This document shows, one piece after another, positions 15,035-43,938 of a DNA stretch of 64,000 nt. The stretch spans positions 106 to 64,105 of the forward strand of contig DATENJ010000477.1 of NCBI GenBank assembly GCA_035275125.1, written 5' to 3'. Each line of letters opens with the position of its first letter. Within the stretch, counting starts at the first letter, position 1. The notes under the pieces are model-generated. The model was given only the letters and a program-made list of their open reading frames with translations, was not told where the DNA came from and made no database searches. Position numbers and translations under genes: made by a program. The stretch comes from Actinomycetes bacterium. GTDB taxonomy: Bacteria; Actinomycetota; CALGFH01.

Positions 15035-15038
15035 AGAC

Positions 15039-16134: not shown

Positions 16135-16503
16135 GTGCCTGCCGTGGCCGAAGGCGAGCTTGCCGAGATTGTCAGGAGCTATTACCGGCTGGTGGACACG
16201 AGCGACTTCACTCGAATGCTCGAGTTGTTCGCCGATGACGCTGTCTACCGGCGGCCGGGCTATGCGCCGCTCGTTGGCAAGCCGGCCCTGACCGAGTTCT
16301 ACCTCGGCGTCCGCGTTATCGAGTCCGGCCGACACGAACTGTCCAGCATCCTGGTGCAGGATCGCTCGGCCGCCGTCGAGGGCCAGTTCGCCGGCCAACT
16401 GAAGGACGGCACCAGCGTCCGCCTACAGTTCGCCGACTTCTTCCGGTTCCATGCCGGCCGGATCGTCGAGCGAAGCACCTATTTCGACGCCCCCGCGGTC
16501 TAG
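16135..16503 (+). CDS. SnoaL-like / NTF2-fold protein
   Basis: 122-aa ORF with the ketosteroid-isomerase-like pattern (YYRLVDTSDFTRMLELFADDAVY). Confidence 0.6.
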   Translation: MPAVAEGELAEIVRSYYRLVDTSDFTRMLELFADDAVYRRPGYAPLVGKPALTEFYLGVRVIESGRHELSSILVQDRSAAVEGQFAGQLKDGTSVRLQFADFFRFHAGRIVERSTYFDAPAV

Positions 16504-17297
16504 CGCGAGAACGCCGCTGGCGTTGGCCTTCCCCCGCCGGCTTCCCCAGTGCACGAGGCACGGATCGCGTCGACCATGCCCTGGAGGGCCTCCAGGAGCA
16601 GCCAGATGTCGCCGGAGCAGACGATCATGTCGGCTCCGGACTCGAACAGCTCGACCGCCTCGTCGACCGAGGAAGGCACCCGGCCGTAGGACTTGCCGTT
16701 GGCGAGGCAGGCCCGCCGTATCCGGTCGGCCGCCTCCAGGAAGGTCGGATGGGCGAACTCGCCGGGGATCCCCAGCGAAGAGCTGAGGTCGTTGTGGCCC
16801 AGCCAGAGCCCATCGACGCCGTCGATGGCGGCGATCGCCTCGACGTCGTCGAGGCCGTCGCGGTTCTCGATGGTGGCGAACAAGGTGGTCCGGCGGTTGG
16901 CATCGGCGAGCTTCTGCCTGGCCGGTCCGGGACGGTAGTCGTCATGAGCGATCTGCAGCGCGACGCCTCGGTGGCCCTCGGGCGGGTACTTCATCCAGTC
17001 CAGGATCTGGCTGGCCTCCTGGGCGTTGCGCACGTGGGGCAGGAGGAGGGCCTCGGCCCCCAGGTCACAAGCCATCGCCACATCGTGGTAGGTCTTGGAC
17101 GCGGGCCGGATCACGACGGGCAGCTGCGCTGCCTCCATGTAGCGCAGCACGTTGTTCACGGTCTCGAAGGTGAAGCCCGCGTGCTCCATATCGAAAAAGA
17201 CGAAGTCGCAACCCGCGGCCTTGAGGATTTTGCCGATCCCGGGCGATACGAACTCCATGACACAGGTGCCGACTTTGACCTCTCGTGATCTCGCCAT
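16500..17297 (-). CDS. HpcH/HpaI family aldolase (2,4-dihydroxyhept-2-enedioate aldolase-like)
   Basis: C-terminal 265 aa of the long minus-strand ORF match the HpcH/HpaI fold (GCDFVFFDMEHAGF, ALLLPHV, GVDGLWLGHNDL). The upstream 600 aa of that ORF are antisense to the SBP gene and were rejected. Confidence 0.75.
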   Translation of the reverse strand: MARSREVKVGTCVMEFVSPGIGKILKAAGCDFVFFDMEHAGFTFETVNNVLRYMEAAQLPVVIRPASKTYHDVAMACDLGAEALLLPHVRNAQEASQILDWMKYPPEGHRGVALQIAHDDYRPGPARQKLADANRRTTLFATIENRDGLDDVEAIAAIDGVDGLWLGHNDLSSSLGIPGEFAHPTFLEAADRIRRACLANGKSYGRVPSSVDEAVELFESGADMIVCSGDIWLLLEALQGMVDAIRASCTGEAGGGRPTPAAFSR

Positions 17298-17398
17298 GTC
17301 CTTGAATCCCAAAGCCGGCCTCCTTGGTACGTCGTCAATTTCTATACGACGTCTGCGACCTAGCGTGACGTAGGGATTTGATGCTTTCGGATCGAGCG

Positions 17399-17450
17399 TC
17401 GTTAGAGTATTGACAACTATCTGCCCGCAGCCTACCCTACTGCCGCGCAG
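17399..17450 (+). promoter_or_regulatory. putative sigma-70-type promoter for SBP1 (TTGACA-N17-TACCCT) embedded in the conserved motif CGTTAGAG-N2-TTGACA-ACTATC
   Basis: -35 TTGACA with 17-nt spacer to TAcccT; AT-richer than surroundings; ~70 nt upstream of the ATG at 17523. Confidence 0.4.
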
Positions 17451-17522
17451 GAGTGCAGTCAAGGCACTTGACGGTCCCCTCCCAGCCGCGGGCCGGGTTT
17501 GGCGATTCGGAGAGGTGACCAG

Positions 17523-19226
17523 ATGCTGTCGAGGAGATCCGTCGTCACCATCCTCATCGTGGCGCTGGCACTGGTCGCGGCCGGCTGCGGCAACAGGAAC
17601 GATGAGCAGCAGACAGCTTCCCGGACGCGACTCACGATCCTGGCCGAGGACGTTCCCACCGGCCTCGACTACGACGGGCCCGCGGTGGGCATCCCCACGA
17701 GTCAGACCGGGATGGTCAACCTCATGGAAGGCTTGCTGACCTACGCCCCGGCCGGCCAGAACGACGAGGGCGTGCGGCTGCTCGACTTCACCAAGTACGA
17801 GGGTCGGCTGGCGGAGTCCTGGGACTATGACCCGGCCACCCTCACCTGGACCTTCCACCTGCGCCAAGGGGTGGTCGGCTGCGAGGGGGCCAGCTTCAAC
17901 GCCGACGACGTGCTCTACACCTTTGCCCGGGCCAAGTCGGTGAGCGGCCCGATCCCGCTCGGCTGGTTCGAGGCCAACACCGCCGGGATCGACGGGTTCA
18001 CCCCCGACGTGATCACTGACGAGTCCAAGCGCGAGCTCGGTGACGAGGTCACCAAGGTGGACGACTACACCGTCAAGATCCGCCAGTCCCGGCCGCCGAG
18101 CCAGCTGTTCCTGCCCGTGCTCGCCCAGTGGGCCGGCGTCCTCATCTTCGACAAGGAGACGATGGAGGCCAACAAGACCGACAAGGACCCCTGGAGCCAC
18201 GAGTACACCAACAACACCAACGCCCCCAGCTTCGGCCCCTACTGCCTCAAGACCTGGGAGAAGGGCAGCCAGTTCGTGGTCACCGCGAACCCCCAGTACT
18301 ACCGGGGCGCGCCCGCGGTCTCCGAAATCGTCTACCGCAAGGTCCCCGAGAGCGCCAACCGGGTGGCCGCGCTGCGCAGCGGTGACGCGGACCTGGTCGA
18401 GCACCTGACGCCCAAGGAGTTCCACGCGCTCCGCGACGCCGACGGGATCGAGGTCTCCGGGGTGATCGGCAACGAGACGCTCCTCATCCACCTGAACTGG
18501 AAGACCAAGCCGTTCGACGACGAGCGCGTGCGGCAGGCGTTCGCCCACGCCATCCCCTACGACGAGATCATCGCCAACGGGTACGCGGGCCAGGCCAAGA
18601 AGTGGGAGAGCCAGATCTCCTCCACCTACCCCGGCTACCACCGTCCCGCCAAGCAGTACGGCACCGACCCCGCCGCCGCACGCGAGCTGCTGGCCCAGGC
18701 GGGGTTCCCGGACGGCCGTGGCCTTGACCGGTTCGGGGACGCCTTGCGGCTGACCTACACCGCCGAGAAGCAGTCCACCCTCGGCCCCATCGCGACCGTC
18801 ATCCAGGCCTCGCTGCGCGAGGTCGGGTTCCCGGTCGAGCTCGACCCGATCCCCCAGACGCAGTTCGCCGACCGCCTCTACACCAAGCACGACCTCCCGC
18901 TGGCGCTGGACGACATCGAGAAGGCGGTGCCGGTGGACGGCGGCTACGCGCTGCTGATCGCCCACACCACCTACGGCTGCTGCGCCAACAACGGCAACTT
19001 CGCCGACCCCCGCGTCGACGAGCTGGTCAAGGCGGCCAACGTCGAGACCGACCAGGCCAAGCGGAGCACCCTGCTGGCGCAGGCGCAGGACATCCTGATG
19101 GAGCGGCTCAGCCTCCTGCCGATCGTCGAGTACAAGACCCAGTGGGCCTACCGGGACGACGTGCAGGGCATCACCTGGCATCCGGAGAACTCCCTCAGGT
19201 GGTCCGACCTTCGCGCCGGCGGCTAG
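17523..19226 (+). CDS. ABC transporter substrate-binding lipoprotein, family 5 (peptide/opine/nickel type) - SBP1
   Basis: Signal peptide and lipobox LAAGCG; SBP_bac_5 architecture. About 70 % aa identity to SBP2 (25452-27158), with a 143-bp near-identical tract. Confidence 0.85.
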   Translation: MLSRRSVVTILIVALALVAAGCGNRNDEQQTASRTRLTILAEDVPTGLDYDGPAVGIPTSQTGMVNLMEGLLTYAPAGQNDEGVRLLDFTKYEGRLAESWDYDPATLTWTFHLRQGVVGCEGASFNADDVLYTFARAKSVSGPIPLGWFEANTAGIDGFTPDVITDESKRELGDEVTKVDDYTVKIRQSRPPSQLFLPVLAQWAGVLIFDKETMEANKTDKDPWSHEYTNNTNAPSFGPYCLKTWEKGSQFVVTANPQYYRGAPAVSEIVYRKVPESANRVAALRSGDADLVEHLTPKEFHALRDADGIEVSGVIGNETLLIHLNWKTKPFDDERVRQAFAHAIPYDEIIANGYAGQAKKWESQISSTYPGYHRPAKQYGTDPAAARELLAQAGFPDGRGLDRFGDALRLTYTAEKQSTLGPIATVIQASLREVGFPVELDPIPQTQFADRLYTKHDLPLALDDIEKAVPVDGGYALLIAHTTYGCCANNGNFADPRVDELVKAANVETDQAKRSTLLAQAQDILMERLSLLPIVEYKTQWAYRDDVQGITWHPENSLRWSDLRAGG

Positions 19227-19272
19227 GACCGCCACCGCACCGGGCCGGCGACCGCCCCGGAACGGGCCCGCG

Positions 19273-20676
19273 ATGACCGAGCTGGCCGACCTCGACGGCG
19301 CCGGGCTCCTGGCCGCCTACCGGGCCGGCCAGGCCTCGCCGGTCGAGGCCGTCGCCTCCTGCCTCGAGCGGATCGAACGGCTCGAAGCCCAGGTCAACGC
19401 GGTGGTGACACTCCGCGCCGAGACCTGCCTCGAACAGGCACAGGCCTCCCTGCGGCGCTGGCGCGAGGGCGCGCCGCGGCCGCTGGAGGGGCTGCCGGTC
19501 GGGCTCAAGGACATCATCTTCACCGCGGGCGTGCGCACCACCGGCGGCTCGGCCATCTATGGCGACCTGGTCCCGGCGGCGGACGCGGCCGTGGTGGAAC
19601 GGCTGACCGCCGCCGGCGCGCTGGTACTGGCCAAGCTGCAGACCTACGAGTTCGCCATGGGCGACAACAGCCACTACGGCCCCACCCGCAACCCATGGCG
19701 GCTGGACCACACGCCGGGTGGCTCCTCGACCGGCTCGGGCGCGGCGCTGGCCGCGCGCGAGCTGCCTCTGGCCGTCGGCACCGACACCGGCGGGTCGATC
19801 CGGGTGCCGGCCAGCTTCTGCGGGGTGGTCGGCCTCAAGCCGACCCTCGGCCTGGTCAGCCGTCGGGGCGTCATGCTGCAGTCGTGGACGCTCGACCACG
19901 TGGGGCCGATGGCCCGCTCGGTCGCCGACGCCGCGCGCATGCTGACCTCGATGGCCGGCCACGACCCGCTGGACCCGGCCTCGATCGGCGGCCCCGCCGG
20001 CAGCTACCAGCAGGCGCTGGCCGCCGGCGTGCGAGGCATGCGCATCGGCGTACCGACGGACTGGTTCTTCGACGTCGTGGACCCCGAGGTCGAGGCGGCC
20101 ACCAGGCAGGCGCTGGCCGTTCTCGCCGAGCAGGGCGCCAGCATCGTGGAGGTGTCGCTGCCGACCGCTCGACTGTCCGACGTCATCGGCTGGACGATCA
20201 TGTACGCCGAGTACGCCGCGTTGCACGAGGACACCTTCGACCGCCTCGAGGACTACAGCGCTCCCCTGTCGCAGGAGATCCTGGTCAGCTCCCAGTTCGT
20301 CAGCGCGCTGGACTACGCCCGGTCGCTACGCGCCATGCACCTCGTCCAGCGCGACTTCGAGTCCGCCTTCGAGCAGGTCCAGGCGCTGGTCGTTCCCGGC
20401 ATGGTCGCGGTCGCGCCGCGCCTGGACGACATGCGCTTCCGGATCGGTGCCCGCGACTACAAGTGGGGCGAGCTGGTGGCCCGCACGACGATGATCTTCA
20501 ACCTCGCCGGTATCCCCGCCCTCTCGCTCCCCGCCGGGCTGCACAGCTCCGGGCTGCCCATGGGCATCCAGGTGGCCGCGCGGCCGTTCGACGAGGCCAC
20601 CTGCTTCCAGATCGGCCAGGCCTATGAGCAGGCCACCGGCCACCACCTGCTGGCACCTCCGCTGCTGTCGGCCTGA
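19273..20676 (+). CDS. amidase-signature family amidase (paralogue of 28546-29970)
   Basis: AS signature GGSSTGSGAALAA, GTDTGGSIRVPAS, and catalytic Lys in GLKDI. Confidence 0.85.
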   Translation: MTELADLDGAGLLAAYRAGQASPVEAVASCLERIERLEAQVNAVVTLRAETCLEQAQASLRRWREGAPRPLEGLPVGLKDIIFTAGVRTTGGSAIYGDLVPAADAAVVERLTAAGALVLAKLQTYEFAMGDNSHYGPTRNPWRLDHTPGGSSTGSGAALAARELPLAVGTDTGGSIRVPASFCGVVGLKPTLGLVSRRGVMLQSWTLDHVGPMARSVADAARMLTSMAGHDPLDPASIGGPAGSYQQALAAGVRGMRIGVPTDWFFDVVDPEVEAATRQALAVLAEQGASIVEVSLPTARLSDVIGWTIMYAEYAALHEDTFDRLEDYSAPLSQEILVSSQFVSALDYARSLRAMHLVQRDFESAFEQVQALVVPGMVAVAPRLDDMRFRIGARDYKWGELVARTTMIFNLAGIPALSLPAGLHSSGLPMGIQVAARPFDEATCFQIGQAYEQATGHHLLAPPLLSA

Positions 20677-20682
20677 GCGCGG

Positions 20683-21672
20683 TCAGGGCAGCAGGTAGCG
20701 GCGCTCGATGGCGGCGCCGACGGTGTATTTGGGGTCGACGACGTTCCCGAGGCGCACGCGGCCGCAGAGGCTGAGCAGCATGTAGGCGTCCCAGCGGTCG
20801 AAGCCGTAGTCGGTCACCATCCACCGGACCAGTTCCCGGTAGGCGATGCGGCAGGCATCCTCCAGCGGGCGGGCGCTCCCCACCGTCATGATCAGCCCGT
20901 CGGTCTCCAGGCGGGGCCACTCGATCGCCCAGCCCTTGACCAGGTCGACCCCGATGGTCGTGACCGTGGCGAACTCCACCGCAACCCCGCAGACCTCGCC
21001 GTCGCCCTGGCAGGCGTGCGCGTCGCCGATGAACAGCCGACCACCCGGGGCCCGCACCGGCAGGTAGGTGACGCTGCCAGGGCCGATGTCGGGCAGGTCC
21101 ATGTTGCCGCCGTGGCTGTCAGGGGTCAGGGTGTTGACCGAGTCGATCTCCGGTGAGCAGCTCAGTGTTCCGATGTGGGGGCGGTACGGGAGCGTGATGC
21201 GGGGGCTCCAATGGACCCACTGCTCGTCGACGTCGACCTTGCGGACGATCTCCGGCAGTGGCTCGTTGAGGGTGGCCGTGAGGGCCGTGCCTGTCAGGGC
21301 CCCGAACTCGGGGATCATGCAGCAGGTCCCTCTGGGCTGTGGCCCCCGAGGGACGATGGACTCGATGTGGACCGCGACGGCGTCGCCCGCCTCCGCTCCC
21401 TCGACGAGGATGGGGCCGTTCTGCGGGTTGGTGAAGGGCAGGCGGACCTTCTCGGTCGGCTTGTCCTGTTCGCTGCGGATGGCCCCGTCGAAGGCGTCCC
21501 TGGTGGTCACGACCACCCGGTCCCCCGGCCTGACCCGCAGGACCGGCTCGGAGTAGGGCCCGATCGTGTAGTGGTAGGTCCCCTGCCGCTCCTCGGTGAG
21601 CTCGTGGGTCTCGGGCTCGCTCCCGCGTCCCTCGCCCCGCCGCGCCGCCACGGCCTCGTCGGGCCATTCCAT
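20683..21672 (-). CDS. acetamidase/formamidase family (FmdA/AmdA) amidohydrolase
   Basis: FmdA_AmdA family similarity across the whole length; start MEWPDE with RBS GGAGGTGA; last gene of the ABC operon. Confidence 0.8.
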   Translation of the reverse strand: MEWPDEAVAARRGEGRGSEPETHELTEERQGTYHYTIGPYSEPVLRVRPGDRVVVTTRDAFDGAIRSEQDKPTEKVRLPFTNPQNGPILVEGAEAGDAVAVHIESIVPRGPQPRGTCCMIPEFGALTGTALTATLNEPLPEIVRKVDVDEQWVHWSPRITLPYRPHIGTLSCSPEIDSVNTLTPDSHGGNMDLPDIGPGSVTYLPVRAPGGRLFIGDAHACQGDGEVCGVAVEFATVTTIGVDLVKGWAIEWPRLETDGLIMTVGSARPLEDACRIAYRELVRWMVTDYGFDRWDAYMLLSLCGRVRLGNVVDPKYTVGAAIERRYLLP

Positions 21673-21674
21673 GG

Positions 21675-22658
21675 TCACCTCCCAACCTCGCGCAGCTTGT
21701 TGGTCCGGTCGTCCACCCTGACGCAGGCGACCGTATGACCCTCGGACACAGCGCGCGGCTCGGGCCGCTGCGGCAGGCAGTCGGCGCGGACAAGCGGGCA
21801 CCTGGAGGAGAACAGGCACCCGGGGGCGAGCTCGATGGAGCTGGGGATCTCGCCCTCAAGGACCCAGCGGTCGAGGACCGCGGCGGGGTCGGCGGGCAGC
21901 GACGCCGACAGCAGCGCCTGGGTGTAGGGGTGCTGGGGGTCGTGGAAGACCTGGTCGACGGGACCGACCTCCACGAAGGTGCCCCGGTACATGACCGCCA
22001 CCCGGTCGCAGTGGGCGCCGATGGTGAACAGGTCGTGGGAGATCAACAGGAAGGTCAGACCGCGCTCGCGCTTGATCTGGTCGAGCAGCGCCAGGATGCC
22101 GGCTCGGATCGACAGGTCCAGCGAGGAGGTCGGCTCGTCCAGCACCAGGAATCCGGGGTCGGTGGCGATGGCTCTGGCGATCGCGACCCGCTGCGCCTCG
22201 CCGCCGCTCAGCTCCCTGGGAAAGCGGCGCACGTGGCCGGGGTTGAGCTGGACCAGGCCGAGCAGCTCCCGGGCCCGGGCCGTCCGGCCCGCGCGGTCAA
22301 GGCGGGTGTGCAGGCGCAGCGGCTCCTCCAGGATCGCGCCCACCCGCATCCTGGGGTTCAGGGAATCGAAGGGGTCCTGGAAGACGACCTGGGTCCGGGC
22401 CCGCCACGAGCGCAGGTCGCTGCCGGACAGCCCGGCGACGTCGACTCCGTCGAACCGGATCCCGCCACTGGTCGGCTCGACCAGGCGCAGCAGGCACCTG
22501 CCGACGGTGGACTTGCCCGAGCCGCTCTCGCCGACCAGCCCCAGGGTCTCACCCGGCTCGATGCGGAAGGAGACGCCGTTGACCGCGTGGACGAGACCCT
22601 TGCCTCGGCCCGCCGGATAGTGCTTGACGAGGTTGTCGACCACCAGCGCCACGCTCAC
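21675..22658 (-). CDS. ABC transporter ATP-binding protein (oligo/dipeptide DppF/OppF type)
   Basis: Walker A GESGSGKST, LSGGEAQR signature, Walker B LVLDEPTS, and C-terminal oligopeptide-ABC domain; GTGA overlap with the upstream ATPase. Confidence 0.9.
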   Translation of the reverse strand: MSVALVVDNLVKHYPAGRGKGLVHAVNGVSFRIEPGETLGLVGESGSGKSTVGRCLLRLVEPTSGGIRFDGVDVAGLSGSDLRSWRARTQVVFQDPFDSLNPRMRVGAILEEPLRLHTRLDRAGRTARARELLGLVQLNPGHVRRFPRELSGGEAQRVAIARAIATDPGFLVLDEPTSSLDLSIRAGILALLDQIKRERGLTFLLISHDLFTIGAHCDRVAVMYRGTFVEVGPVDQVFHDPQHPYTQALLSASLPADPAAVLDRWVLEGEIPSSIELAPGCLFSSRCPLVRADCLPQRPEPRAVSEGHTVACVRVDDRTNKLREVGR

Positions 22659-23506
22659 CGGCGGCTCCCGGAGTCCATCTGCTGCCCGCGCCCAGGGGCT
22701 GAGGCGATCAGCCGCCGGCTGTACGGATGCTCCGGCTCGGCGAACACCCGGCGCACCGGGCCCTTCTCCACCACGCGCCCGGCCAGCATGATCTCCACCC
22801 GGTCGCAGTAGTGGGCGACGATGCCGAGGTCGTGGGTGACGAACAGGACCGAGGACCCGGTCTGGCGCACCTTGGCCCGCAGCAGGTCCAGGATCTGGGC
22901 CTGGACGGTGACGTCCAGGCCGGTGGTGGGCTCGTCGGCCACCAGCAGCCGGGGCTCGTTGATGGTGGCGATGGCGATCAGGGCCCGCTGGGCCATGCCG
23001 CCGCTGAGCTGGTGGGCGTAGGCCCGGGCGCGGCGCTGGGCGTCTGGGATGCCCATGCGCTCCAGCGCCGCAACCGCCTGCCGCCAGGCCTGCCGCCGGT
23101 CCACCCGGTGGTGGGCCCGGTAGGCGTGCGCGACCTGGTCGCCGATGCGGACCAGCGGGTTGAGCGCGGCGCGCGGGTTCTGGACGACCAGGCCGATCTG
23201 GCCGCCGCGGATCTGCCGCAGCCGCTCCTCCGAGGCACCCAGGACGTCTTCGCCGAGGAACCGCACCTCGCCGCCGTCGATCCTGCCCGGCGCCCGGACC
23301 AGGCCAAGGAGGGCGAGCGCGGCCGTCGACTTCCCGGACCCGCTCTCACCGACCAGGCCGACGAACTCACCCTCGCGGATGGTGAGCGCGAACTCCACGA
23401 CGGCGCTGACGTCGCCGGCGTCCAGTGGGTAGGTGACGTTGAGCCCGCTCGCCTCCAGCACGACCGGCCGTGGCGTCCCGACGCCGTCGTCGGGACTATC
23501 GGCCAT
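22655..23506 (-). CDS. ABC transporter ATP-binding protein (DppD/OppD type)
   Basis: GESGSGKST, LSGGMAQR, LVADEPTTGLD. Confidence 0.9.
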   Translation of the reverse strand: MADSPDDGVGTPRPVVLEASGLNVTYPLDAGDVSAVVEFALTIREGEFVGLVGESGSGKSTAALALLGLVRAPGRIDGGEVRFLGEDVLGASEERLRQIRGGQIGLVVQNPRAALNPLVRIGDQVAHAYRAHHRVDRRQAWRQAVAALERMGIPDAQRRARAYAHQLSGGMAQRALIAIATINEPRLLVADEPTTGLDVTVQAQILDLLRAKVRQTGSSVLFVTHDLGIVAHYCDRVEIMLAGRVVEKGPVRRVFAEPEHPYSRRLIASAPGRGQQMDSGSRR

Positions 23507-25441: not shown

Positions 25442-25451
25442 GCCCTGGAAT

Positions 25452-27158: not shown

Positions 27159-27437
27159 GCCCGTTCCCTTCCTCGGGGGAGATCGACCAGTTGCCCAGTG
27201 CTGATCGCCGTCAACTCTGATGCTTGCTCGGTTCGTCGTCAAGTCCCTAACTACGCTTCTGGCAACGGCCCTCCAACGATGCTGGGGCAGCCGCCTCGAA
27301 GCAGTCGTGACCTGCAGGTTCTGCGAGTGGTAGGCTGGCGCCGGTCGTCGGCCGGGCGCTGTCGCTAAGTACCTTGTGACGGTGTCGCGGTCGACGGTCG
27401 GACGCCGTCTGGCAGCGCACCGGGAGCGATAGATCGC

Positions 27438-28286: not shown

Positions 28287-28306
28287 CGTCCCTTCTGAAC
28301 CCGGAG

Positions 28307-28549
28307 GTGGTCCCAACGAGCGAGCCTACCGTCGAAACCCTCGAAGTTCTCGCCCGGGAACTGGGTATCTCGGTCGCCCGGGAGCGACTCGCACGGGCCG
28401 CCGAGGCGCATGCCCGCCTGCGCCCGATGCTGCGGCAGTTCCGGGAGGTGAAGTTCGACTACCTGGACGGGGTTCAGCCCGCGCATGCCAGGCGCTGGAT
28501 CGAGAACGGAGGGCGCTCGGTTCCACACGCACCGCAAGCGCCGTCGTGA
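28307..28549 (+). CDS. small AtzG-like (DUF4089-like) protein, putative partner of the downstream amidase; start codon uncertain
   Basis: ~80-aa helical ORF (LEVLARELGISVARERLARAAEAHARLRPMLRQFREVKFDYLDGVQPAHARRW). Its TGA stop overlaps the amidase GTG start (GTGA). Confidence 0.5.
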   Translation: MVPTSEPTVETLEVLARELGISVARERLARAAEAHARLRPMLRQFREVKFDYLDGVQPAHARRWIENGGRSVPHAPQAPS

Positions 28550-33016: not shown

Positions 33017-33039
33017 GCCGTTCCTCCCCGACGCCGTGG

Positions 33040-37143: not shown

Positions 37144-38114
37144 TCCCCCACCCTTTCCTGATGGTGGCAGCTCACGTCGCGGTCGGGCTCGACCTCCAGG
37201 AGCGCCGGCGCCGCCTCCCGGCACGTCTGGTCGGCGAGCGGGCATCGCGTCGAGTAGGCGCACCCGTCGCGGGCGGGTGGTGGGACGGACCGTCGCTGGG
37301 CGGCCGCCGGCAACGCCTCCCCGGTCCCGAACCGCGACGAGTGGAGGAGGCGGATGGTGTACGGGTGCCGCGGCTCGTCGAACACGCGCTCCACCGGGCC
37401 GACCTCGACGATCCTGCCGGCGTACAGCACCGCGATCCGGTCGCAGTAGTTCGCGGCGATCCCCAGGTCCCGGGTGATCAGGAGGGCCGATGCACCCAGC
37501 TCCTCGACCTGCTGGCGCAGGAGGTCGAGGATCTGGGTCTGGATGGTGACGTCCAGCCCCATGGTGGGCTCGTCCGCCACCAGGACCTTCGGCTCGTTGA
37601 TGGTCGCCATGGCGATCAGGACCCGCTGGGCCATCCCGCCGCTGAGCTCGTGCGGGTAGGCGCGGAGCCGTTCCTCCGGGTCGGGAATCGCGACCTTCGT
37701 CAGCATCTCCAGGGCTCGCCGGCGGGCGTCCTTCAGCGAGACGTCGTGGTGCCCGCGGTAGACCTCCGCGACCTGGTCCCCGACCCGGAGCAGGGGGTTG
37801 AGGTGCGCCCGGGCGTTCTGCACGATCAGCGCCAGGTCGCGCCCCCGGATGGTGCGCAGCTCCTCCTCGCGCCTGGACAGCAGGTCCCGGCCCTCAAGCA
37901 CCACCCGGCCGGCGACGATCTGTCCGGGGGACGGCAACAGCCCGAGGACGCTCCAGGCGACGATCGACTTCCCCGACCCGCTCTCCCCGATGAGCCCGAG
38001 GGTCTCGCCGGGTCGCAGCTGCAGCGTGACGCCGTCGAGGGCCCGGGCCCGACGGCCGCGGGCCTGGAACTCGACGCTCAGGTCCTGGATCTCGAGGATC
38101 GCCTCCCGCGACAC
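37116..38114 (-). CDS. ABC transporter ATP-binding protein (DppD type)
   Basis: GESGSGKSI, LSGGMAQR, LVADEPTMGLD. Confidence 0.9.
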   Translation of the reverse strand: MSREAILEIQDLSVEFQARGRRARALDGVTLQLRPGETLGLIGESGSGKSIVAWSVLGLLPSPGQIVAGRVVLEGRDLLSRREEELRTIRGRDLALIVQNARAHLNPLLRVGDQVAEVYRGHHDVSLKDARRRALEMLTKVAIPDPEERLRAYPHELSGGMAQRVLIAMATINEPKVLVADEPTMGLDVTIQTQILDLLRQQVEELGASALLITRDLGIAANYCDRIAVLYAGRIVEVGPVERVFDEPRHPYTIRLLHSSRFGTGEALPAAAQRRSVPPPARDGCAYSTRCPLADQTCREAAPALLEVEPDRDVSCHHQERVGEWSSFESTT

Positions 38115-39065
38115 CTAGACCCTCCGGCGGCGCGGGTCGGTGACCTCCGCCAGGGAGTCGCCGATGAGACCGAACCCCAGGACGGTGATCGACAGCATGA
38201 GACCGGGGAACACCGAGGGCCACCAGATGCCGCCCTCCATCAGGCTCGAGGTGCCGACGGCGATCATCGACCCCCACTCCGGGGTCGGAACCCGGACCCC
38301 CGCCCCGACGAAGCTGAGCCCGGCCGTGAGCAGCATCGCCGTTCCCACGGTGACCGAGCTCATGGCGAAGATCGGCCCCGACGAGTTCGGGAGCAGGTGC
38401 CGGAAGACGATGCCGCGGTCCGAGGATCCCGACGCCTTGGCCGCCTCCATGAACAGCCGCTGCTTCACATAGACCGCCTGGCTGCGGACGAGGCGCGCGT
38501 ACACCGGTGCGTTGACGACCGCGATCGCGAGCACGACGTTCTCGATGCGCTGCCCGGTGAGGACCACCAGGGCCATCCCGAGGACGAACACGGGGAACGA
38601 CTGGATGAGGTCGGCGACCCGCATCGCCGACTCGCTCCAGCGATTCGTGTAGTAGCCGGCGACAACGCCGATCGGCGTCCCGATCGCGATCGCCAGCAGG
38701 GTCGCGGTGACGGCGATGGTGAGGTCGATCCGCGGCGCGTAGATCAGCCGGGAGAAGATGTCCATCCCGCTCTTGTCGGTGCCGAGGAGGTAGGTCGCGT
38801 TCGGCGGCAGCAGCTCGTCGCCCGGATGGGCGGTCTGCGGGTCGAACCGCGCCAGCAGAGGAGCGAACGCCGCCAGCAGCAGCACCACGGCGACGATCGC
38901 GAGCCCGGTCGCCAGCCGCGGGTTGGCCCGCACGATCCGCCACAGGCGATGCAGGCGAGCCCGCCAGTCCCTTGGTGGAACGAAGGTGAACGCCTCGCCG
39001 GGAGGGACGTCGCTCAGCGAGGACACGTCATCCTCCGAGGGCTTCCCCGGCCAGCGGTCGTTCAA
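38115..39065 (-). CDS. ABC transporter permease (DppC type)
   Basis: BPD_transp_1 core; the N-terminus may start later, at the VSSLSD GTG. Confidence 0.85.
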   Translation of the reverse strand: MNDRWPGKPSEDDVSSLSDVPPGEAFTFVPPRDWRARLHRLWRIVRANPRLATGLAIVAVVLLLAAFAPLLARFDPQTAHPGDELLPPNATYLLGTDKSGMDIFSRLIYAPRIDLTIAVTATLLAIAIGTPIGVVAGYYTNRWSESAMRVADLIQSFPVFVLGMALVVLTGQRIENVVLAIAVVNAPVYARLVRSQAVYVKQRLFMEAAKASGSSDRGIVFRHLLPNSSGPIFAMSSVTVGTAMLLTAGLSFVGAGVRVPTPEWGSMIAVGTSSLMEGGIWWPSVFPGLMLSITVLGFGLIGDSLAEVTDPRRRRV

Positions 39066-39933
39066 CGGTCGCTTCCTCGATCCGGTAGAACTCGTCCATC
39101 CCGATCAGATCCTCGATCTCCTTGCGAATCTCGATCGCCTCACCTTGGGGGAGCACCGGGCTGCCAACGTCGCGGAGCGACCGGTAGGCGTCGCGGGCGA
39201 CCTTGTACGACAGCAGCAGGGCCGCCATCGCCTCCACGACCATCTTGTAGCCCATGTCCTCGAGCTCGCGGACGGTCAGGACGGGCCGCCCGACCCGGTT
39301 CCCCAGGCTGTTGACGTATACCACCGGCCCGTCCACATCACGAGGAAACTTCGCCGCCTGGTCCAGGTCGTCCGGGAAGGCCATCACGAGGTCGGCCCCC
39401 GCCCCGAACAGGGCGTTGGCCCGCCTGACCCCCTCGTTGTAGCCCTCGGTGCGGATCGCGTCGGTCCGGGCGATGAGGACGAAGTCCGGGTCGGCCTCCC
39501 GGCGCGCCCGGTCGGCCATCCGGATCTTGGCCAGCAGGTCGTCGAGCGGGATCGTGTGCTCGATGTAGTCGCGGTGGTAGTGCGCCCGCTTCGGGAAGTG
39601 CTGGTCCTCGATGTGCACCCCCGAGACCCCACCCCAGATGAGCTCCCGGACGGCCCGCATCGTGTGCATGGCCTCCCCGAACCCGCCGTCTCCGTCGACG
39701 ACCAGGGGCGTGTCGATCCTGCGGGCGATCTGGCTGGACGCCTCCACGAGCTCGATCATGCTCGTGAGCGGCTCGGTGACGCAGGTCGAGCAGCCGAGCG
39801 CGTAGCCGCCGAGATAGACGACGGGGAACCCGAGCTGCTCCACGACCCGCGCGGTCAGGGCGTTGATGCAGACGGGCGCCACGATGAGCCCCGGCCTCGC
39901 CAGCGCCTCCCTCAGAGCCTGCCGTTGCTTCAC
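39028..39933 (-). CDS. isocitrate lyase / PEP mutase superfamily enzyme (2-methylisocitrate lyase / oxaloacetate decarboxylase-like)
   Basis: ICL/PEPM TIM-barrel motifs (ARVVEQLGFPVVYLGGYAL, DGDGGFG, HIEDQ); GTG start with GGGAGGGAG. Confidence 0.75.
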   Translation of the reverse strand: MKQRQALREALARPGLIVAPVCINALTARVVEQLGFPVVYLGGYALGCSTCVTEPLTSMIELVEASSQIARRIDTPLVVDGDGGFGEAMHTMRAVRELIWGGVSGVHIEDQHFPKRAHYHRDYIEHTIPLDDLLAKIRMADRARREADPDFVLIARTDAIRTEGYNEGVRRANALFGAGADLVMAFPDDLDQAAKFPRDVDGPVVYVNSLGNRVGRPVLTVRELEDMGYKMVVEAMAALLLSYKVARDAYRSLRDVGSPVLPQGEAIEIRKEIEDLIGMDEFYRIEEATVERPLAGEALGG

Positions 39934-39976
39934 GTTCGCTCCCTCCCTTGCGTCGACCGACCATCCACCGTCCCGC

Positions 39977-41392
39977 TCAGCAGCCAGGCCCCTCGAGGAT
40001 CCGGCGGGAGATGCGTCGCCTGACGAGCCGTCCCGAGGCCTGGACACCGGTCGCCTTGCGGTCCCGCACCAGGACCCGCCCGCGCAGGATCGTCGTCACC
40101 GGCCAGCCCACCACCTCCCATCCCTCCCAGGGGCTGTAGTCGGAGACATGGAAGTCCTCACGGGTCAGGGTCATGCGGAGCTCCGGGTCGATGATCGCCA
40201 GGTCGGCGTCGCTGCCGGGGGCGATCACCCCCTTGGTGGGGTAGAGGCCGAAGATCCTCGCGGCGTTCGAGGAGGTGAGCTCGACGAAGCGCTCCAGGCG
40301 CATGCCCCGCTTCACCACGCCCTCGGAGTACATGACGCCCATGCGGGCCTCGGCGCCGAGGTTGCCGCCGGTGAGGTTGTCGATCCGCTCACCGCGGAGC
40401 TTCACCTCCAGCGACGTCGGCATCTCGTCGGTGGCGACGGTGGAGAGCACCCCGCTCGCCGCGGCCTGCCACAGCGCCTCCTGGTCGTCGGCGGTCTTGA
40501 GCGACGGGTAGGTGTGGTAGCAGAAGCCTCGCGGGCTGCGGTACTCCTCCGCGGTCCGGCAGAGGTAGTGGTGCAGCGTCTCGCCGTACACCGGGAGGCC
40601 CCGCCCGCGGCTGTCCGCGAGCACCTCCACCGCCTGCCTTGTGGATGCGTGCACGAAGTAGACGGCGGCCTCCTTGGCCCGCGCCACGGCCACGGTCTGC
40701 TGGAAGGCGAGCTCCTCGGCGAGGTGGGAGCGGACCTCGTGGATGTTCCACCCCGCCATCCGGTCGTCGCGCAGGGACTGTTCGTAGTTGCACTGCACGG
40801 TGTCCTCGTCCTCGGCATGCACCGCCAGGATGCCGCCCTCGGCGGCCAGCTGGCCCAGGAGCAGCGCTATCCGTCCGTAGTCGAGCCGGAACGACTTCCT
40901 GGTGTTCACGGTGAAGGCCTTGAAGCTGGGGAACCCGTCCTGCACCAGCTCGGGAACCTGGTCGAACACGTCCAGCGGTTGTGGGCCGAGCAGGCCGATG
41001 TGGAACCCGTAGTCGGTGTGCGACCGGCCGTCCCAGCGCTGGCACCGCCGTTGCAGCTCCTCATGCAGGTCCTCGCCGGCGTGGACGAAGCAGAAGTCGA
41101 GGTGGGTGGTCACGCCGCCGTGGACCATCCCGACCGTGTCGTCCTCCGGGCCGAGGGAGTAGTAGTCGAGCTCGGGATGCTGGGCGATGTACATGTCCTG
41201 GTGGGCGTGCGGTTCGATGCCGCCGGGAACGACCACCATGCCGGAGGCGTCGACGACGCCGGCGTCGGCGTCGTCGAGCGCCCCCGGGGAGGCGACCACG
41301 GCGATCGTCTCCCCGCGCACCCCGAGGTCCCAGTTGCCGGCGCCCTCGGGGGTGACGACGTGCCCACCACGGATGACGAGATCGAGAGCTAT
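39977..41392 (-). CDS. D-hydantoinase / dihydropyrimidinase-type cyclic amidohydrolase; start codon anomalous (probable 1-nt indel in the first ~10 codons)
   Basis: PGGIEPHAHQ metal-binding motif, carboxylated-lysine region SFKAF, and the conserved N-terminal beta-strand LDLVIRGGHVVTPEG. No ATG/GTG/TTG lies in frame between the upstream TGA and this strand; an ATG sits one frame off just upstream. Confidence 0.75.
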   Translation of the reverse strand: MALDLVIRGGHVVTPEGAGNWDLGVRGETIAVVASPGALDDADAGVVDASGMVVVPGGIEPHAHQDMYIAQHPELDYYSLGPEDDTVGMVHGGVTTHLDFCFVHAGEDLHEELQRRCQRWDGRSHTDYGFHIGLLGPQPLDVFDQVPELVQDGFPSFKAFTVNTRKSFRLDYGRIALLLGQLAAEGGILAVHAEDEDTVQCNYEQSLRDDRMAGWNIHEVRSHLAEELAFQQTVAVARAKEAAVYFVHASTRQAVEVLADSRGRGLPVYGETLHHYLCRTAEEYRSPRGFCYHTYPSLKTADDQEALWQAAASGVLSTVATDEMPTSLEVKLRGERIDNLTGGNLGAEARMGVMYSEGVVKRGMRLERFVELTSSNAARIFGLYPTKGVIAPGSDADLAIIDPELRMTLTREDFHVSDYSPWEGWEVVGWPVTTILRGRVLVRDRKATGVQASGRLVRRRISRRILEGPGC

Positions 41393-41437
41393 CGCTGCTC
41401 ATCCCTTCGGGTTCGGGAGCGCTGCGTCTCCGGTGGG

Positions 41438-43069
41438 CTAGGTCTTCCTGGAGAAGCTTGCGAACCGAAGGAAGTTGTTGGTCTGCCAGACGTATCCGCC
41501 CATGCTGCTCAGATGGGGGAAGTTGTTGCCCACGTGGAGGTAGAAGCCCCACGGGGCGTCCCCCACGAGGCGCTGGTTCGCCTCCCGGGCGAGCTTCGTC
41601 CGCTCGGCGGGGTCCGGGCTGGCCAGGCCCCGGTCGATCAGGTCGGTGACGGTGGCGTCGTTGTACTTCACCCAGTTGGCCGGGCCGATGCCCTCGTCGG
41701 GATGGAAGTACAGCCCTAGGACGTACGGCCCGTCCGGCGTGAACGGCGTGTCGTTGACCAGGACCATCTGGGCCTCGCGCTTGAAGTACTGCTCGAAGTA
41801 CTTGGCCGGGCTCAGCTTCTGCAGCTGGACGTCGATACCCACGTCGCGCAGGGCGGTCTGGATGAGGATCGCGACCTCCTCGTCGACCGCCTGGGCGGTG
41901 TTGAAGGACAGCTGCACCTTCGGGTTCTGGACGCCGGCCTCCTGCAGCAGCTGACGCGCCCGGTCCGGGTTGTTGCCGTACGGCCAGTCGTCGAGGGCTC
42001 CGGGATAGCCGCCGGGAATGTAGCCGGGCGCCGGCCCGACACCCTGGGCCTTCAGGAACACGGTGCTGACGATCTCGTCGACCGGGAGGGCGTAGGCCAC
42101 CGCCTGGCGCACCTTGGGGTTGTCGAGCGGCGGCATGCCGTTGTTGAGGCCGAGGATGAGACCGGCGCTCCCCTTCCTCGACTCGACCACGACGGCCTTG
42201 TTGCCCCGGAGCTCCTCGAGCTGCCGTGGCGTGAGGTCGACGGCCGCGTCGACCTCACCTCGTCCCAGCAGGGAGGCGCGGGACGACGCCTCGGGGATGG
42301 CCTTCACGATGATCTTCTGGATGGTGAGCGGCCCCTTGAAGTAGTTGGGGTTGGCGACCCAGACGGTCTCCTGCCCAGGGGTGAACGTCTCCACGTGGTA
42401 GGCCCCGAAGCTTGCCGTGTGGGTCGCCATCCAGTCCTTGGCCCACTTGTCGCTGTCGGTCGCGTGCTTCTTGACCTCGGTCGAGTCGTAGATCGTGCAG
42501 ATCGGGATCGTCGCCATTGCCAGCGGGAGGATCGGATTCGGCTTGGTGAGGTTGATGTCGAACGTGTAGGTGTCGACGACCGAGACCGGGTCCTCCTTGT
42601 CGACCGAGCTCACGCCCATCACGAAGCCGCACAGCCCGTCGAGTCCGAGGCTGCGCTCGAACAGGTACTTCACGTCGGCGGAGGTGAGCTCGTTGCCGAA
42701 GTAGCTCTTGACGCCCTTGCGGAGGGTGAAGCGGAAGCTCAGGCCGTCGTCGGCCCGCTCGTAGGACTCGGCGAGGAAGGGCTCGGGCGCCTTCGAGACG
42801 TCGACGTCCACCGTCCCGTCCTCGTTGGTCTTAGTTGGCAGCTGCACCAGGGGATCGGCGTAGTTGAGCCCGGCCTCGAGGTTCTGCGGCTGGTTCCCGA
42901 CGAACTCCGAGTCGAGTGAGGTGGGGGTCGCGGCCTCGGCGATCACGAGGGTCGACCCTCGACTGCTCCCGCCGTTGCTGTCCTCACTCTTGGACGTGCA
43001 GGCCCCGAGCACCACCACCAGGACGGCGAGACCTGCGACCAGTCGCCTGCGCGCCCATGTCCCATCCAT
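41438..43069 (-). CDS. ABC transporter substrate-binding lipoprotein, family 5 - SBP3
   Basis: Signal peptide and lipobox LGACTS, SBP_bac_5 fold; RBS GAGGAAGGGG. Confidence 0.9.
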   Translation of the reverse strand: MDGTWARRRLVAGLAVLVVVLGACTSKSEDSNGGSSRGSTLVIAEAATPTSLDSEFVGNQPQNLEAGLNYADPLVQLPTKTNEDGTVDVDVSKAPEPFLAESYERADDGLSFRFTLRKGVKSYFGNELTSADVKYLFERSLGLDGLCGFVMGVSSVDKEDPVSVVDTYTFDINLTKPNPILPLAMATIPICTIYDSTEVKKHATDSDKWAKDWMATHTASFGAYHVETFTPGQETVWVANPNYFKGPLTIQKIIVKAIPEASSRASLLGRGEVDAAVDLTPRQLEELRGNKAVVVESRKGSAGLILGLNNGMPPLDNPKVRQAVAYALPVDEIVSTVFLKAQGVGPAPGYIPGGYPGALDDWPYGNNPDRARQLLQEAGVQNPKVQLSFNTAQAVDEEVAILIQTALRDVGIDVQLQKLSPAKYFEQYFKREAQMVLVNDTPFTPDGPYVLGLYFHPDEGIGPANWVKYNDATVTDLIDRGLASPDPAERTKLAREANQRLVGDAPWGFYLHVGNNFPHLSSMGGYVWQTNNFLRFASFSRKT

Positions 43070-43089
43070 GCGATGACCCCTTCCTCGGA

Positions 43090-43140
43090 GGCCCGGCGTC
43101 GCTGTACCAGATTTGATATATCCTATAGATGGACGCCTGG
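43090..43140 (-). promoter_or_regulatory. AT-rich promoter/operator region of the SBP3 operon (TTGACC -35-like; GATATATC palindrome; TGTACCAG...CCTGGTCA inverted repeat, candidate GntR operator)
   Basis: The only AT-rich stretch in this 115-bp intergenic region; it lies between the GntR gene and the SBP3 start. Confidence 0.4.
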
Positions 43141-43185
43141 TCAAGGATGGCGGATCGGACCGAAGGGACCACCGGAGCGGTGGTG

Positions 43186-43938
43186 CTAGCGCGAGCCCTC
43201 GCGCAGGTGGCTGACCACCGAGAAGCGCCCGCTGAGAATGTGCGCCCGCATGCGCTCCCCCGCCTCGTCCGCGTCCTGGGCCCGGATCGCCTCGAGGATC
43301 CCCTCGTGCTCGTCCATCGACTTGCAGGCACGGTCGGGGATGAGCCAGATGTCCCAGGGGAACCAGGCCCACAGCTTCTGAATCATGAAGTGCAGGTACT
43401 TCGAGGCGGAGGCGGCATAGATCGTGTGATGCCAGCGCGCGTTGAGCTCGGGGACCTCTCGCAGGTCGTTGGCATCGACTCCGCGCTTCATGGCGGCGTG
43501 GAGGCCCTCAAGGAACTGGACGTGCTCCGGGGTGAGCTTGGGCACGGCCTGCCGGGTGGCCTGCGACTCGAGCATCGAGCGGATCTCGTAGATCTCGAGT
43601 GCGTCCTCGGCCGTGAACTCGGTGACCCGCACCTCGCGATGGCTCTCCATCGACACCAGGCCCTCGGTGGCCAGGATGCGCAGCGCCTCCCTGATCGGCG
43701 TCGCGCTCACACCCAGATCCTCGATCAGCTCCGAGAACCTGAGCCGTTGCCCGCGCTTGATCCGCCCGCTCGCGATCGCTTGCCGCAACGAATCGGCCGC
43801 CAGCTCGGCCTTGGTCTTGTAGCGGTCCATCGGGCGCGCGCCGAAGCCCGACCCGAACAACCCGGCATCGGCCAGCATCTCCGGGGCGACCTGCCGCGGG
43901 ACGTTGGCACCCTGATCGGGCATCAGTCGATCGGACAT
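43186..43938 (-). CDS. GntR-family transcriptional regulator (FadR-type FCD C-terminal domain)
   Basis: GntR HTH (GQRLRFSELIEDLGVSATPIREALRILATEGLV) followed by a helical FCD domain. Confidence 0.85.
   Translation of the reverse strand: MSDRLMPDQGANVPRQVAPEMLADAGLFGSGFGARPMDRYKTKAELAADSLRQAIASGRIKRGQRLRFSELIEDLGVSATPIREALRILATEGLVSMESHREVRVTEFTAEDALEIYEIRSMLESQATRQAVPKLTPEHVQFLEGLHAAMKRGVDANDLREVPELNARWHHTIYAASASKYLHFMIQKLWAWFPWDIWLIPDRACKSMDEHEGILEAIRAQDADEAGERMRAHILSGRFSVVSHLREGSR

Follow-up and report, generated by a model that had tools for sequence, protein, structure and literature searches.

Importers of the Opp/Dpp/Nik (PepT) type combine a family-5 substrate-binding protein (SBP) with a B-like and a C-like permease and two ATPases that carry oligo_HPY tails, and several binding proteins may share a single translocator, as do DppA and MppA with DppBCDF in Escherichia coli and the multiple OppA proteins of Borrelia. 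Genes of the same kinds are found in a 64,000-nucleotide stretch of DNA, hereafter the window, from an uncultured actinomycete (GenBank assembly GCA_035275125.1, contig DATENJ010000477.1, positions 106 to 64,105 of the forward strand), where three family-5 SBP genes lie within 27 kb among genes for amide hydrolases. An initial annotation read this region as three paralogous ATP-binding cassette (ABC) uptake systems, each wired to a different amide-cleaving chemistry and under its own regulator, and took their concentration as a sign of lineage-specific expansion. The analysis reported here points to another layout: the region probably consists of two independent catabolic modules standing back to back, rather than three parallel transport systems.

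Described catabolic systems offer further points of comparison. Hydantoin-utilization (hyu) clusters and reductive pyrimidine catabolism bring together a dihydropyrimidinase or D-hydantoinase, HyuAB, and an M20 carbamoylase. In the caprolactam pathway of Pseudomonas jessenii, an ATP-dependent caprolactamase, CapAB, acts together with an omega-aminotransferase (PMC6061476, PMC8453981). The amidase AtzE requires the small protein AtzG for its solubility, and the AtzE-AtzG pair is thought to derive from GatA-GatC (PMC6219798).

Two Translocators for Three Binding Proteins

Pfam confirmed all three SBP_bac_5 genes and, at the family level, the hydrolases that had been named in the region, i.e., two amidase-signature enzymes, an FmdA_AmdA-family enzyme, a cyclic amidohydrolase, HyuA and HyuB. 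The number of transport systems did not survive the same scrutiny. Only two permease/ATPase sets are present (21675-25441, and 29967-31001 plus 36178-39026), and a dedicated set of two permeases and two ATPases per SBP, as in the Opp/Dpp/Nik (PepT) importers, is not found for three systems. No permease or ATPase gene was found near SBP1 in the window, where SBP1 is followed by Ami1 alone; the genes converging on Ami1 are those of the SBP2 operon, namely SBP2, permease B, permease C, ATPase D, ATPase F and Fmd. The genes that carry this argument are as follows.

17523-19226, plus strand: SBP1, family-5 lipoprotein binding protein (SBP_bac_5, PF00496, E=1e-75)
19273-20676, plus strand: Ami1, amidase-signature enzyme, GatA/AtzE-like (Pfam Amidase, PF01425, E=1e-106)
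21675-22658 and 22655-23506, minus strand: translocator A ATPases, F-like and D-like, respectively (Pfam ABC_tran and oligo_HPY)
23496-24413 and 24410-25441, minus strand: translocator A permeases, C-like and B-like, respectively (BPD_transp_1 with OppC_N or BPD_transp_1_N)
25452-27158, minus strand: SBP2, first gene of the translocator A operon (PF00496, E=2e-74)
28546-29970, plus strand: Ami2, amidase-signature enzyme, GatA/AtzE-like, right end of module A (Pfam Amidase, E=5e-104)
29967-31001, minus strand: translocator B permease, B-like, last gene of module B (BPD_transp_1 and BPD_transp_1_N)
36178-37143 and 37116-38114, minus strand: translocator B ATPases, F-like and D-like, respectively (ABC_tran and oligo_HPY)
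38115-39026, minus strand: translocator B permease, C-like (BPD_transp_1 and OppC_N)
41438-43069, minus strand: SBP3, first gene of the module B operon (PF00496, E=1e-74)

Genes were called from third-position GC content and the pattern of GC1 exceeding GC2, and each was verified with Pfam; the window has a G+C content of 70%, so that shadow frames dominate the raw lists of open reading frames (ORFs). Start codons were set from ribosome-binding sites and from the gene calls of near-identical public contigs.

Sequence identities among these genes are similarly at odds with three equivalent systems. SBP1 and SBP2 are 62% identical over their full length, and their neighbors Ami1 and Ami2 are 60% identical, likewise over their full length, so the two binding proteins do not have different hydrolase chemistries as partners; they have paralogues. 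SBP3 shares PF00496 and is just 27-28% identical to SBP1 and SBP2, so that SBP1 and SBP2 are the only paralogous pair and SBP3 is a distant member of the family. The components of translocators A and B are 44-53% identical (ATPases, 49-53%). Together, these values indicate one duplicated SBP-amidase pair and, beside it, a separate system of the same broad ABC family. All three SBPs possess lipoprotein signal peptides (LVAAGC, VSVAGC and VLGAC), and the Lys/cis-Ser/Ser motifs of the amidase signature are intact in both Ami1 and Ami2 (GLKD/GVKD, GGSSTG/GASSTG and DTGGSIRVP).

Based on gene context, the orphan SBP1 most likely shares translocator A, as SBP1-type binders are paired with A-type translocators elsewhere (see L070, below). 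An extra SBP gene that lacks its own translocator and sits beside a complete system is another feature in common with the Opp/Dpp/Nik importers.

Separate Conservation of the Two Modules

Module A (15079-29970) encodes one translocator, two SBP/amidase pairs, an FmdA/AmdA-family amidase (Fmd), an HpcH aldolase, a TrmB regulator and an 80-amino-acid (80-aa) protein. Module B (29967-43938) encodes a GntR regulator, SBP3, a cyclic amidohydrolase, a lyase resembling isocitrate lyase (ICL) and phosphoenolpyruvate (PEP) mutase, HyuAB, a class III aminotransferase and translocator B. The modules meet at Ami2 and permease B, which overlap by 4 nt (29967-29970), and within module A the convergent stops of Ami1 and Fmd are 6 nt apart (20676/20683); with convergent gene ends that almost touch, there is no space for terminators between the opposing transcription units.

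The two closest relatives found, L071 and L072 (90% and 87% DNA-identical to the window, respectively), align to it only as far as about 29936-29946, at the end of Ami2. Beyond this point, L071 continues with unrelated sequence, and L072-L074 possess a third amidase-signature gene on the same strand (L072 3364-3675; L074 2274-2519) at the position where the window has module B. On another contig (P0009), a transposase fragment and alpha/beta hydrolases follow the Ami2-type gene. Synteny that ends at the A/B junction in close relatives, with each module conserved separately, means that the 27-kb "supercluster" is a juxtaposition specific to this genome. A metagenome scan with Ami2 peptides returned relatives at 32-38% identity only and was uninformative on the junction, and a composition profile of the window did not reveal an island signature.

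Module A itself is intact on contigs of six JGI metagenome samples, in which SBP1 is 91% identical to that of the window. Their layout runs NHL, SnoaL, HpcH (minus strand), SBP1, Ami1, the convergent Fmd-F-D-C-B-SBP2 operon, TrmB, the small ORF and Ami2. Module B likewise has an orthologous locus of its own (L063, 68% SBP3 identity), with the same order of SBP, amidohydrolase, PEP-mutase-like enzyme, permease C, two ATPases, HyuB, aminotransferase and HyuA. The GntR gene is divergent in L063, and the upstream genes differ from those of the window.

Pairing of Binding Proteins with Amidases in Module A

The variety of module A relatives reveals which genes travel together. The P0004 contig carries HpcH, two SBPs and two amidases, followed by convergent Fmd and ATPase genes, and on the P0013 contig a single B-C-D-F set is accompanied on its sides by two SBPs, two amidases, HpcH, TrmB and the small ORF. 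A reduced version on the P0009 contig consists of one SBP, TrmB, the small ORF, an amidase, B-C-D-F, Fmd and a second amidase. Finally, the L070 locus is co-directional and reads HyuA, HyuB, aminotransferase, MmgE/PrpD, HpcH, Fmd, SBP, B, C, D, F, small protein and amidase; the identity between its translocator and translocator A is 59-65%, and the nearest counterparts of its SBP and its amidase are SBP1 and Ami1, respectively.

Neighbor-joining trees of the SBPs and of the amidases, to be taken as indicative only, are congruent from one contig to the next. P0001-P0004, together with P0010 of L070, make up an SBP1 clade whose counterpart is the Ami1 clade (P0251-P0254, the amidase of L070, and P0270 on the P0004 contig). 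The SBP2 clade of P0005-P0007, P0009 and P0013 is matched in turn by the Ami2 clade (P0249 and P0250, with P0261 on the P0009 contig and P0263 on the P0013 contig). Such congruence places the duplication before the divergence of these lineages; the SBP1/SBP2 and Ami1/Ami2 splits are older than several of them, and the proposed lineage-specific expansion is not supported. Moreover, the partnership of each binder with its amidase has persisted, an argument for two amide substrates that are related but distinct. An evolutionary pairing of SBP1 with Ami1, and of SBP2 with Ami2, is thus indicated by the trees. Module A thereby offers a natural example of SBP/amidase pairs that diversify together, apparently on one ABC translocator.

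Orthologues of SBP1 at 87-91% and at 68% identity retain their genomic context, orthologues of SBP2 are found at 86-92% and at 68% identity, and the translocator A permeases are 55-66% identical to orthologues beside SBP1/2-type binding proteins in about 35 genomes. A genome scan with SBP1 returned 50 loci at 48-61% identity, mostly from Alphaproteobacteria and Acidimicrobiia, with no close relative found among them. In these loci the transporter is kept and the neighbors vary, including a polysaccharide-deacetylase-fold protein (linked to the SBP1/2-type transporter in Alphaproteobacteria), MmgE/PrpD, a CitE-like lyase, CoA transferases, acyl-CoA dehydrogenase, MaoC, GMC oxidoreductases and short-chain dehydrogenases/reductases (SDR). 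Several alphaproteobacterial metagenome-assembled genomes (L010, L026, L027 and L047) possess tandem duplicates of SBP1/2-type genes at equivalent positions (around 8200-11600), suggesting that SBP duplication is recurrent in this family.

The remaining features of module A are listed below.

15079-16125, plus strand: NHL-repeat beta-propeller protein, left border of module A (Pfam NHL, E=3e-28)
16135-16503, plus strand: SnoaL-like/NTF2-superfamily protein, conserved in L056-L059 (Pfam SnoaL_2, E=7e-19)
16500-17297, minus strand: HpcH/HpaI class II aldolase, divergent from SBP1 (Pfam HpcH_HpaI, E=1e-28)
17330-17351, no strand: inverted repeat copy 1, candidate operator (CGTCGT-N10-ACGACG)
20683-21672, minus strand: Fmd, FmdA/AmdA family, last gene of the SBP2 operon (PF03069, 122 bits against a cutoff of 27)
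27234-27255, no strand: inverted repeat copy 2, candidate operator (CGTCGT-N10-ACTACG, one mismatch)
27438-28286, plus strand: TrmB-family regulator, divergent from SBP2 (Pfam TrmB and Regulator_TrmB)
28307-28549, plus strand: 80-aa conserved protein, whose stop overlaps the Ami2 start

The NHL gene is kept beside SnoaL-HpcH-SBP1 in the relatives with 91% identical SBP1 and on the P0004 contig. Directly upstream of NHL in L059, which is among the relatives with 91% identical SBP1, is an IS21-type element (IstA/IstB; 5217-7267), and in the window an ECF sigma-factor gene occupies this place, a difference that marks the left border of module A. Farther out, the left flank (1-13 kb) contains FtsH and various hydrolases, with no additional ABC system found. 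A single extended collinear match (E=6e-20) relates the NHL propeller to 3fvz, the catalytic peptidyl-alpha-hydroxyglycine amidating lyase domain of peptidylglycine alpha-amidating monooxygenase. The protein may accordingly be a lyase of the N-acyl-alpha-hydroxyglycine or ureidoglycolate type, the products of which would be an amide and glyoxylate. The HpcH protein is 91% identical to the L056 copy, and its best solved structures are 2-keto-3-deoxy-sugar-acid and HpaI aldolases.

A Shared Inverted Repeat

Three different regulators had been proposed for the region, the third of them tentatively assigned to the promoter of the HpcH aldolase region. TrmB and GntR are indeed present, and no third was found. 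Because 16500-17297 encodes an aldolase, we rejected both a regulatory role for the HpcH product and a placement of TrmB at the left end. What the HpcH region does have in common with the TrmB region is an inverted repeat: copy 1 lies between HpcH and SBP1, 33 nt upstream of the HpcH start, and copy 2 lies between SBP2 and TrmB, 76 nt upstream of the SBP2 start. The exact sequence CGTCGT-N10-ACGACG occurs once in 64 kb, relative to 0.13 expected, and with one mismatch allowed there are four sites in 64 kb, half of them in the HpcH/SBP1 and SBP2/TrmB intergenic regions. Both copies are kept in L056 (2637-2659 and 12422-12443; N10/11 spacer) despite divergence of the spacer, and copy 2 is a perfect inverted repeat there. 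The shared repeat fits a single regulon, most simply under TrmB, that would be controlled through this candidate operator. TrmB is kept beside SBP2-type operons in relatives.

A similar stretch of about 22 nt, GTTAGAGnnTTGACnACTATC, with a TTGAC(A/G) -35-like hexamer, was observed upstream of both NHL (15031-15053) and SBP1 (17398-17422); of the two, L056 retains just the one at SBP1. At 16000-31000, consensus promoter and terminator matches were no more frequent than chance, and neither Rfam families nor tRNA genes were found in the window.

A Small Protein beside Ami2

The family of the 80-aa protein numbers 54 representatives at E<=1e-3 among 1.84 billion library proteins, and its members share the conserved motif LRxVxLxFLxxIEPAxAxxWIExGG. 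Pfam has no match for the window's protein and no model for its family; among 49 family members, a single one matches PF13318 (AtzG-like), at E=0.001. The predicted structure consists of three helices (mean pLDDT, 85), and in a Foldseek comparison with solved structures GatC chains rank first, at a non-significant E of about 1. In L070, a homologue not called as a gene (16090-16374) ends at the first base of the Ami1-type amidase gene; a 76-aa ORF called in L070 is not homologous to the small protein.

Comparison with the AtzE-AtzG 1-carboxybiuret hydrolase is instructive in both directions. As in that system, the stop of a gene for a small helical protein overlaps the start of a GatA/AtzE-like amidase gene, Ami2, and an NTF2-superfamily gene (the superfamily of AtzH) is located in module A. 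The closest solved structures to Ami2 are GatA and AtzE 6c62. Unlike AtzE, however, Ami2 scores below the equivalog cutoffs (NF006631, Ami2 303 and Ami1 301 bits against 461; TIGR02715, 288-289 bits for both amidases against 426). Furthermore, neither AtzG nor GatC is significantly similar to the 80-aa protein, the SnoaL_2 protein falls outside DUF3225, AtzD and AtzF genes are absent, and Ami1 has no adjacent small-protein gene. Our best guess, from gene position and predicted fold, is that the 80-aa protein is a GatC/AtzG-like structural partner of Ami2, and it may represent a new amidase partner of this type.

Organization of Module B

Module B is a nearly continuous operon, the features of which, apart from SBP3 and translocator B, are the following.

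30986-33016, minus strand: HyuA-type subunit, ATP-dependent hydantoinase/oxoprolinase/lactamase (Hydant_A_N, Hydantoinase_A and Hydant_A_C; PF01968, PF05378, PF19278)
33040-34389, minus strand: class III (GSA-aminomutase-like) aminotransferase (Pfam Aminotran_3)
34376-36181, minus strand: HyuB-type subunit (Hydantoinase_B, PF02538, E=5e-164)
39028-39933, minus strand: ICL/PEP-mutase superfamily enzyme (Pfam PEP_mutase, E=2e-34)
39977-41392, minus strand: cyclic amidohydrolase, dihydropyrimidinase/hydantoinase-like (NCBIfam D-hydantoinase, 305 bits against a cutoff of 393)
43186-43938, minus strand: GntR/FCD regulator of module B (Pfam GntR and FCD)

The ICL/PEP-mutase-family enzyme and the class III aminotransferase, together with the 80-aa ORF, NHL and SnoaL of module A, had been overlooked in the initial annotation. 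The GntR/FCD gene is present beside the SBP3 orthologue in both L062 and L063. The two permease genes are 7 kb apart (38115-39026 and 29967-31001) and interleaved with enzyme genes. A more distant relative (L075, 53% SBP3 identity) has the order SBP-C-D-F-B, and genes for an FmdA enzyme and an Amdase/racemase-like protein come next. The end position of permease B is therefore ancestral, and the enzyme genes of the window were inserted after SBP and between the second ATPase and permease B.

From SBP3 to the last permease, which starts with a GTG at 31001 behind a GGGAGG ribosome-binding site, junctions are overlaps or gaps of 0-43 nt, the exception being 45 nt after SBP3 (117 nt if the canonical GTG start of the amidohydrolase is used). 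The conserved N-terminal peptide of the amidohydrolase, LDLVIRGG..., is encoded upstream of the sole canonical start (window 41320-41392, minus strand; L063 9340-9403). At the aligned Ile codon the window has ATA, and L063 has an ATT five bases after a GGAGG site. It is thus likely that the amidohydrolase starts at a non-canonical ATA at 41392, and the comparison suggests that a non-canonical start is conserved in the two relatives.

Upstream of the GntR gene, an M20 peptidase gene (44026-45297, minus strand) is split over two frames, with the break between about 44610 and 44860. Its N-terminal half is in the frame of a 423-aa ORF and its dimerization and C-terminal portions are in the 44082-44609 frame. 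A metagenome contig from ENA carries a 100% identical SBP3 and the same split, so that the gene is either a pseudogene or a shared assembly error. Still farther upstream is a fragment of a DcuA/DcuB C4-dicarboxylate transporter (45485-45985, minus strand; profile positions 3-79 of 368), a remnant.

Functional Assignment of Binding Proteins and Enzymes

Equivalog membership was judged by NCBIfam bit scores against family cutoffs, with SBP1 and SBP2 as the binding proteins scanned, and no tested enzyme nor either of these SBPs reaches its cutoff. SBP1 and SBP2 score 125-133 bits against DppA (cutoff 1005), 67-68 against OppA (947), 64-99 against NikA (TIGR02294; 393), 111-118 against Opp5A_nikA (600) and 40-52 against CntA (800). 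A clustering of the SBPs with generic di- or oligopeptide binders, which would have told against a dedicated amide function, is therefore not what the scores suggest, the best being 125-133 bits against cutoffs of 393-1098. The solved structures of AccA and NikA yield 45-68 bits with SBP1 and SBP3, and the best solved-structure matches of SBP3 reach about 100 bits. In contrast to the Opp/Dpp/Nik importers, the SBPs of the window are about 25% identical to any characterized binder, and each co-diversifies with a cytoplasmic amidase, not with peptidases.

Among the enzymes, Fmd scores 75 bits against the formamidase FmdA equivalog (cutoff 500). It matches the uncharacterized solved structure 5UBU over its whole length, at 545 bits and about 70-75% identity as read from the alignment, an unusually strong conservation for a protein with no assigned substrate; in the library searched, no paper mentions this structure. 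The product of 39977-41392 retains the HxH metal motif (GGIEPHAH) and scores 305 bits against dihydropyrimidinase TIGR02033 (cutoff 393); by these sequence criteria it is a cyclic amidohydrolase, not a demonstrable dihydropyrimidinase. HyuA and HyuB have the expected two-subunit combination of Hydantoinase_A and Hydantoinase_B domains, and fall short of the caprolactamase subunits CapA (499 bits) and CapB (281 bits), each with a cutoff of 1000. The aminotransferase scores 354 bits against the GSA aminomutase subfamily (cutoff 398), and for the ICL/PEP-mutase-like enzyme the best NCBIfam model is methylisocitrate lyase, at 168 bits (cutoff 354).

Module B resembles the P. jessenii caprolactam pathway in that HyuA- and HyuB-type genes flank a class III aminotransferase gene, in keeping with a logic of lactam opening followed by transamination. 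It differs in the sub-cutoff CapA and CapB scores, in its GSA-aminomutase-like aminotransferase, and in the addition of a dihydropyrimidinase-like enzyme, an ICL/PEP-mutase-like lyase and an ABC importer. Similarly, an HxH cyclic amidohydrolase, HyuA/HyuB genes and an M20 peptidase gene upstream of GntR recall the hyu clusters; on the other hand, the amidohydrolase is below the cutoff, the M20 gene is frameshifted and absent from the orthologous L063 locus, and module B has neither a hydantoin racemase nor a hydantoin permease gene.

Competing Explanations

The model of three parallel family-5 ABC systems, with their own regulators and different hydrolases in a lineage-specific scavenging supercluster, accounts readily for three SBP_bac_5 genes within 27 kb, for amide hydrolases of four families and for the TrmB and GntR regulators. 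It is nevertheless very improbable, as there are two translocators only, the amidases adjacent to SBP1 and SBP2 are paralogues, SBP3 is distant from both, the SBP1/SBP2 split is older than several lineages, the synteny of the closest relatives stops at the module junction, and HpcH is an enzyme whose promoter region has the same inverted repeat as the TrmB region. A purely coincidental adjacency, in which di- or oligopeptides are the ligands of the SBPs and the hydrolase genes are neighbors without a functional connection, is only slightly easier to entertain and is itself quite unlikely. The nearest named SBP relatives are DppA, GsiB, NikA and HbpA, and the JGI annotation is that of peptide/nickel SBPs, as such a model would have it; however, SBP scores of about 100-135 bits are far below the equivalog cutoffs, SBPs and amidases remain linked and co-diversify across many contigs, and the transporter operons contain hydrolase genes within them, joined to adjacent genes by overlaps of stop and start codons. 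The transporter-amide hydrolase linkage, moreover, recurs in unrelated genomes, supporting the earlier proposal that the region is devoted to the uptake and hydrolysis of amide-type compounds.

Adjacency might also have been selected. Modules A and B would then form one pathway, in which module B imports and opens a cyclic amide and the amidases, Fmd and HpcH of module A finish the resulting linear amides or ureido acids. The L070 cluster, which unites HyuA, HyuB, an aminotransferase, MmgE/PrpD, HpcH and Fmd with an SBP1-type transporter and an Ami1-type amidase, is what such a pathway might look like, and the linkage of an SBP3-type transporter to an FmdA enzyme in L075 and the 4-nt overlap of Ami2 with the module B permease point the same way. 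We regard a single pathway as improbable, though less so than either of the foregoing models: the L070 HyuA and HyuB are just 36% and 32% identical to those of the window and its aminotransferase belongs to class IV, where that of the window belongs to class III; in relatives at 87-91% and 62% identity, module A is found without module B; module B of L063 keeps its order though its upstream genes differ; and the modules have separate regulators.

Two independent modules thus remain the favored interpretation, and several points weigh against it or against its parts. By joining HyuAB and an aminotransferase to module-A-type genes, L070 indicates that the modules may be functionally related. Translocator B, or a transporter with its genes elsewhere, could be the docking partner of SBP1. 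The trees behind the SBP-amidase pairing carry no bootstrap support, the inverted repeat is short, and its role as a TrmB operator is that of a candidate. For the 80-aa protein, neither sequence nor profile comparison with solved structures gave a match, similarity to AtzG or GatC is not significant by sequence or by fold, and on the P0013 contig the small-protein gene follows TrmB with no amidase gene immediately downstream of it. Finally, sub-cutoff NCBIfam scores limit the substrate class to the level of the enzyme family.

Proposed Pathways and Biological Significance

The recurrent set of module-A-type genes, i.e., amide hydrolases with a pyruvate-type aldolase, joined in other genomes by MmgE/PrpD or CitE-like lyases and the polysaccharide-deacetylase-fold protein, suggests as a possible substrate a hydroxy- or amino-dicarboxylic acid in amide form, which would undergo deamidation and subsequently aldol cleavage. 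In such a scheme, SBP1 and SBP2 would capture two related amides, pass them through the same translocator A channel and thereby deliver them for deamidation by the matched amidases, Ami1 and Ami2. The FmdA/AmdA amidase, the HpcH aldolase, the NHL propeller and the SnoaL-like protein might process the products further. TrmB would probably control both divergent promoter regions through the shared inverted repeat, and the 80-aa protein, which appears translationally coupled to Ami2, would probably serve as its GatC/AtzG-like structural partner.

The gene content of module B suggests a route in which a cyclic amide or ureide is ring-opened, then transaminated, and its carbon chain finally cleaved at a C-C bond. 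Under GntR control, the compound would be imported by SBP3 and its own translocator, and its ring would be opened by the metal-dependent cyclic amidohydrolase and/or the ATP-dependent HyuAB. The released amino acid could then be transaminated by the class III aminotransferase, and its carbon skeleton cleaved by the ICL/PEP-mutase-family lyase. As a general reading of both modules, the scavenging of amides and cyclic amides is reasonable.

No part of these results overturns current understanding; the region is an ordinary catabolic neighborhood of an uncultured actinomycete, and its components are of known kinds, namely an importer of the Opp type served by more than a single binder, and operons in which genes for transporters and hydrolases are intermingled. 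An apparently tripled transport system turns out to be a pair of unrelated catabolic operons, adjoining each other by chance in this one genome. It is tempting to suggest, as a tentative possibility, that module A represents an uncharacterized and widespread amide-nutrient system of uncultured Actinomycetes, with duplicated, co-evolving SBP/amidase pairs on one translocator and amidases that may be heteromeric with a new family of small helical proteins. If true, it would provide the cell with a modular way to broaden its range of amide substrates. The co-diversifying SBP-amidase pairs and the small protein for which Pfam has no model are the features most worthy of experiment, and they may serve as handles on the amide and cyclic-amide nutrients of uncultured soil or water Actinomycetes.

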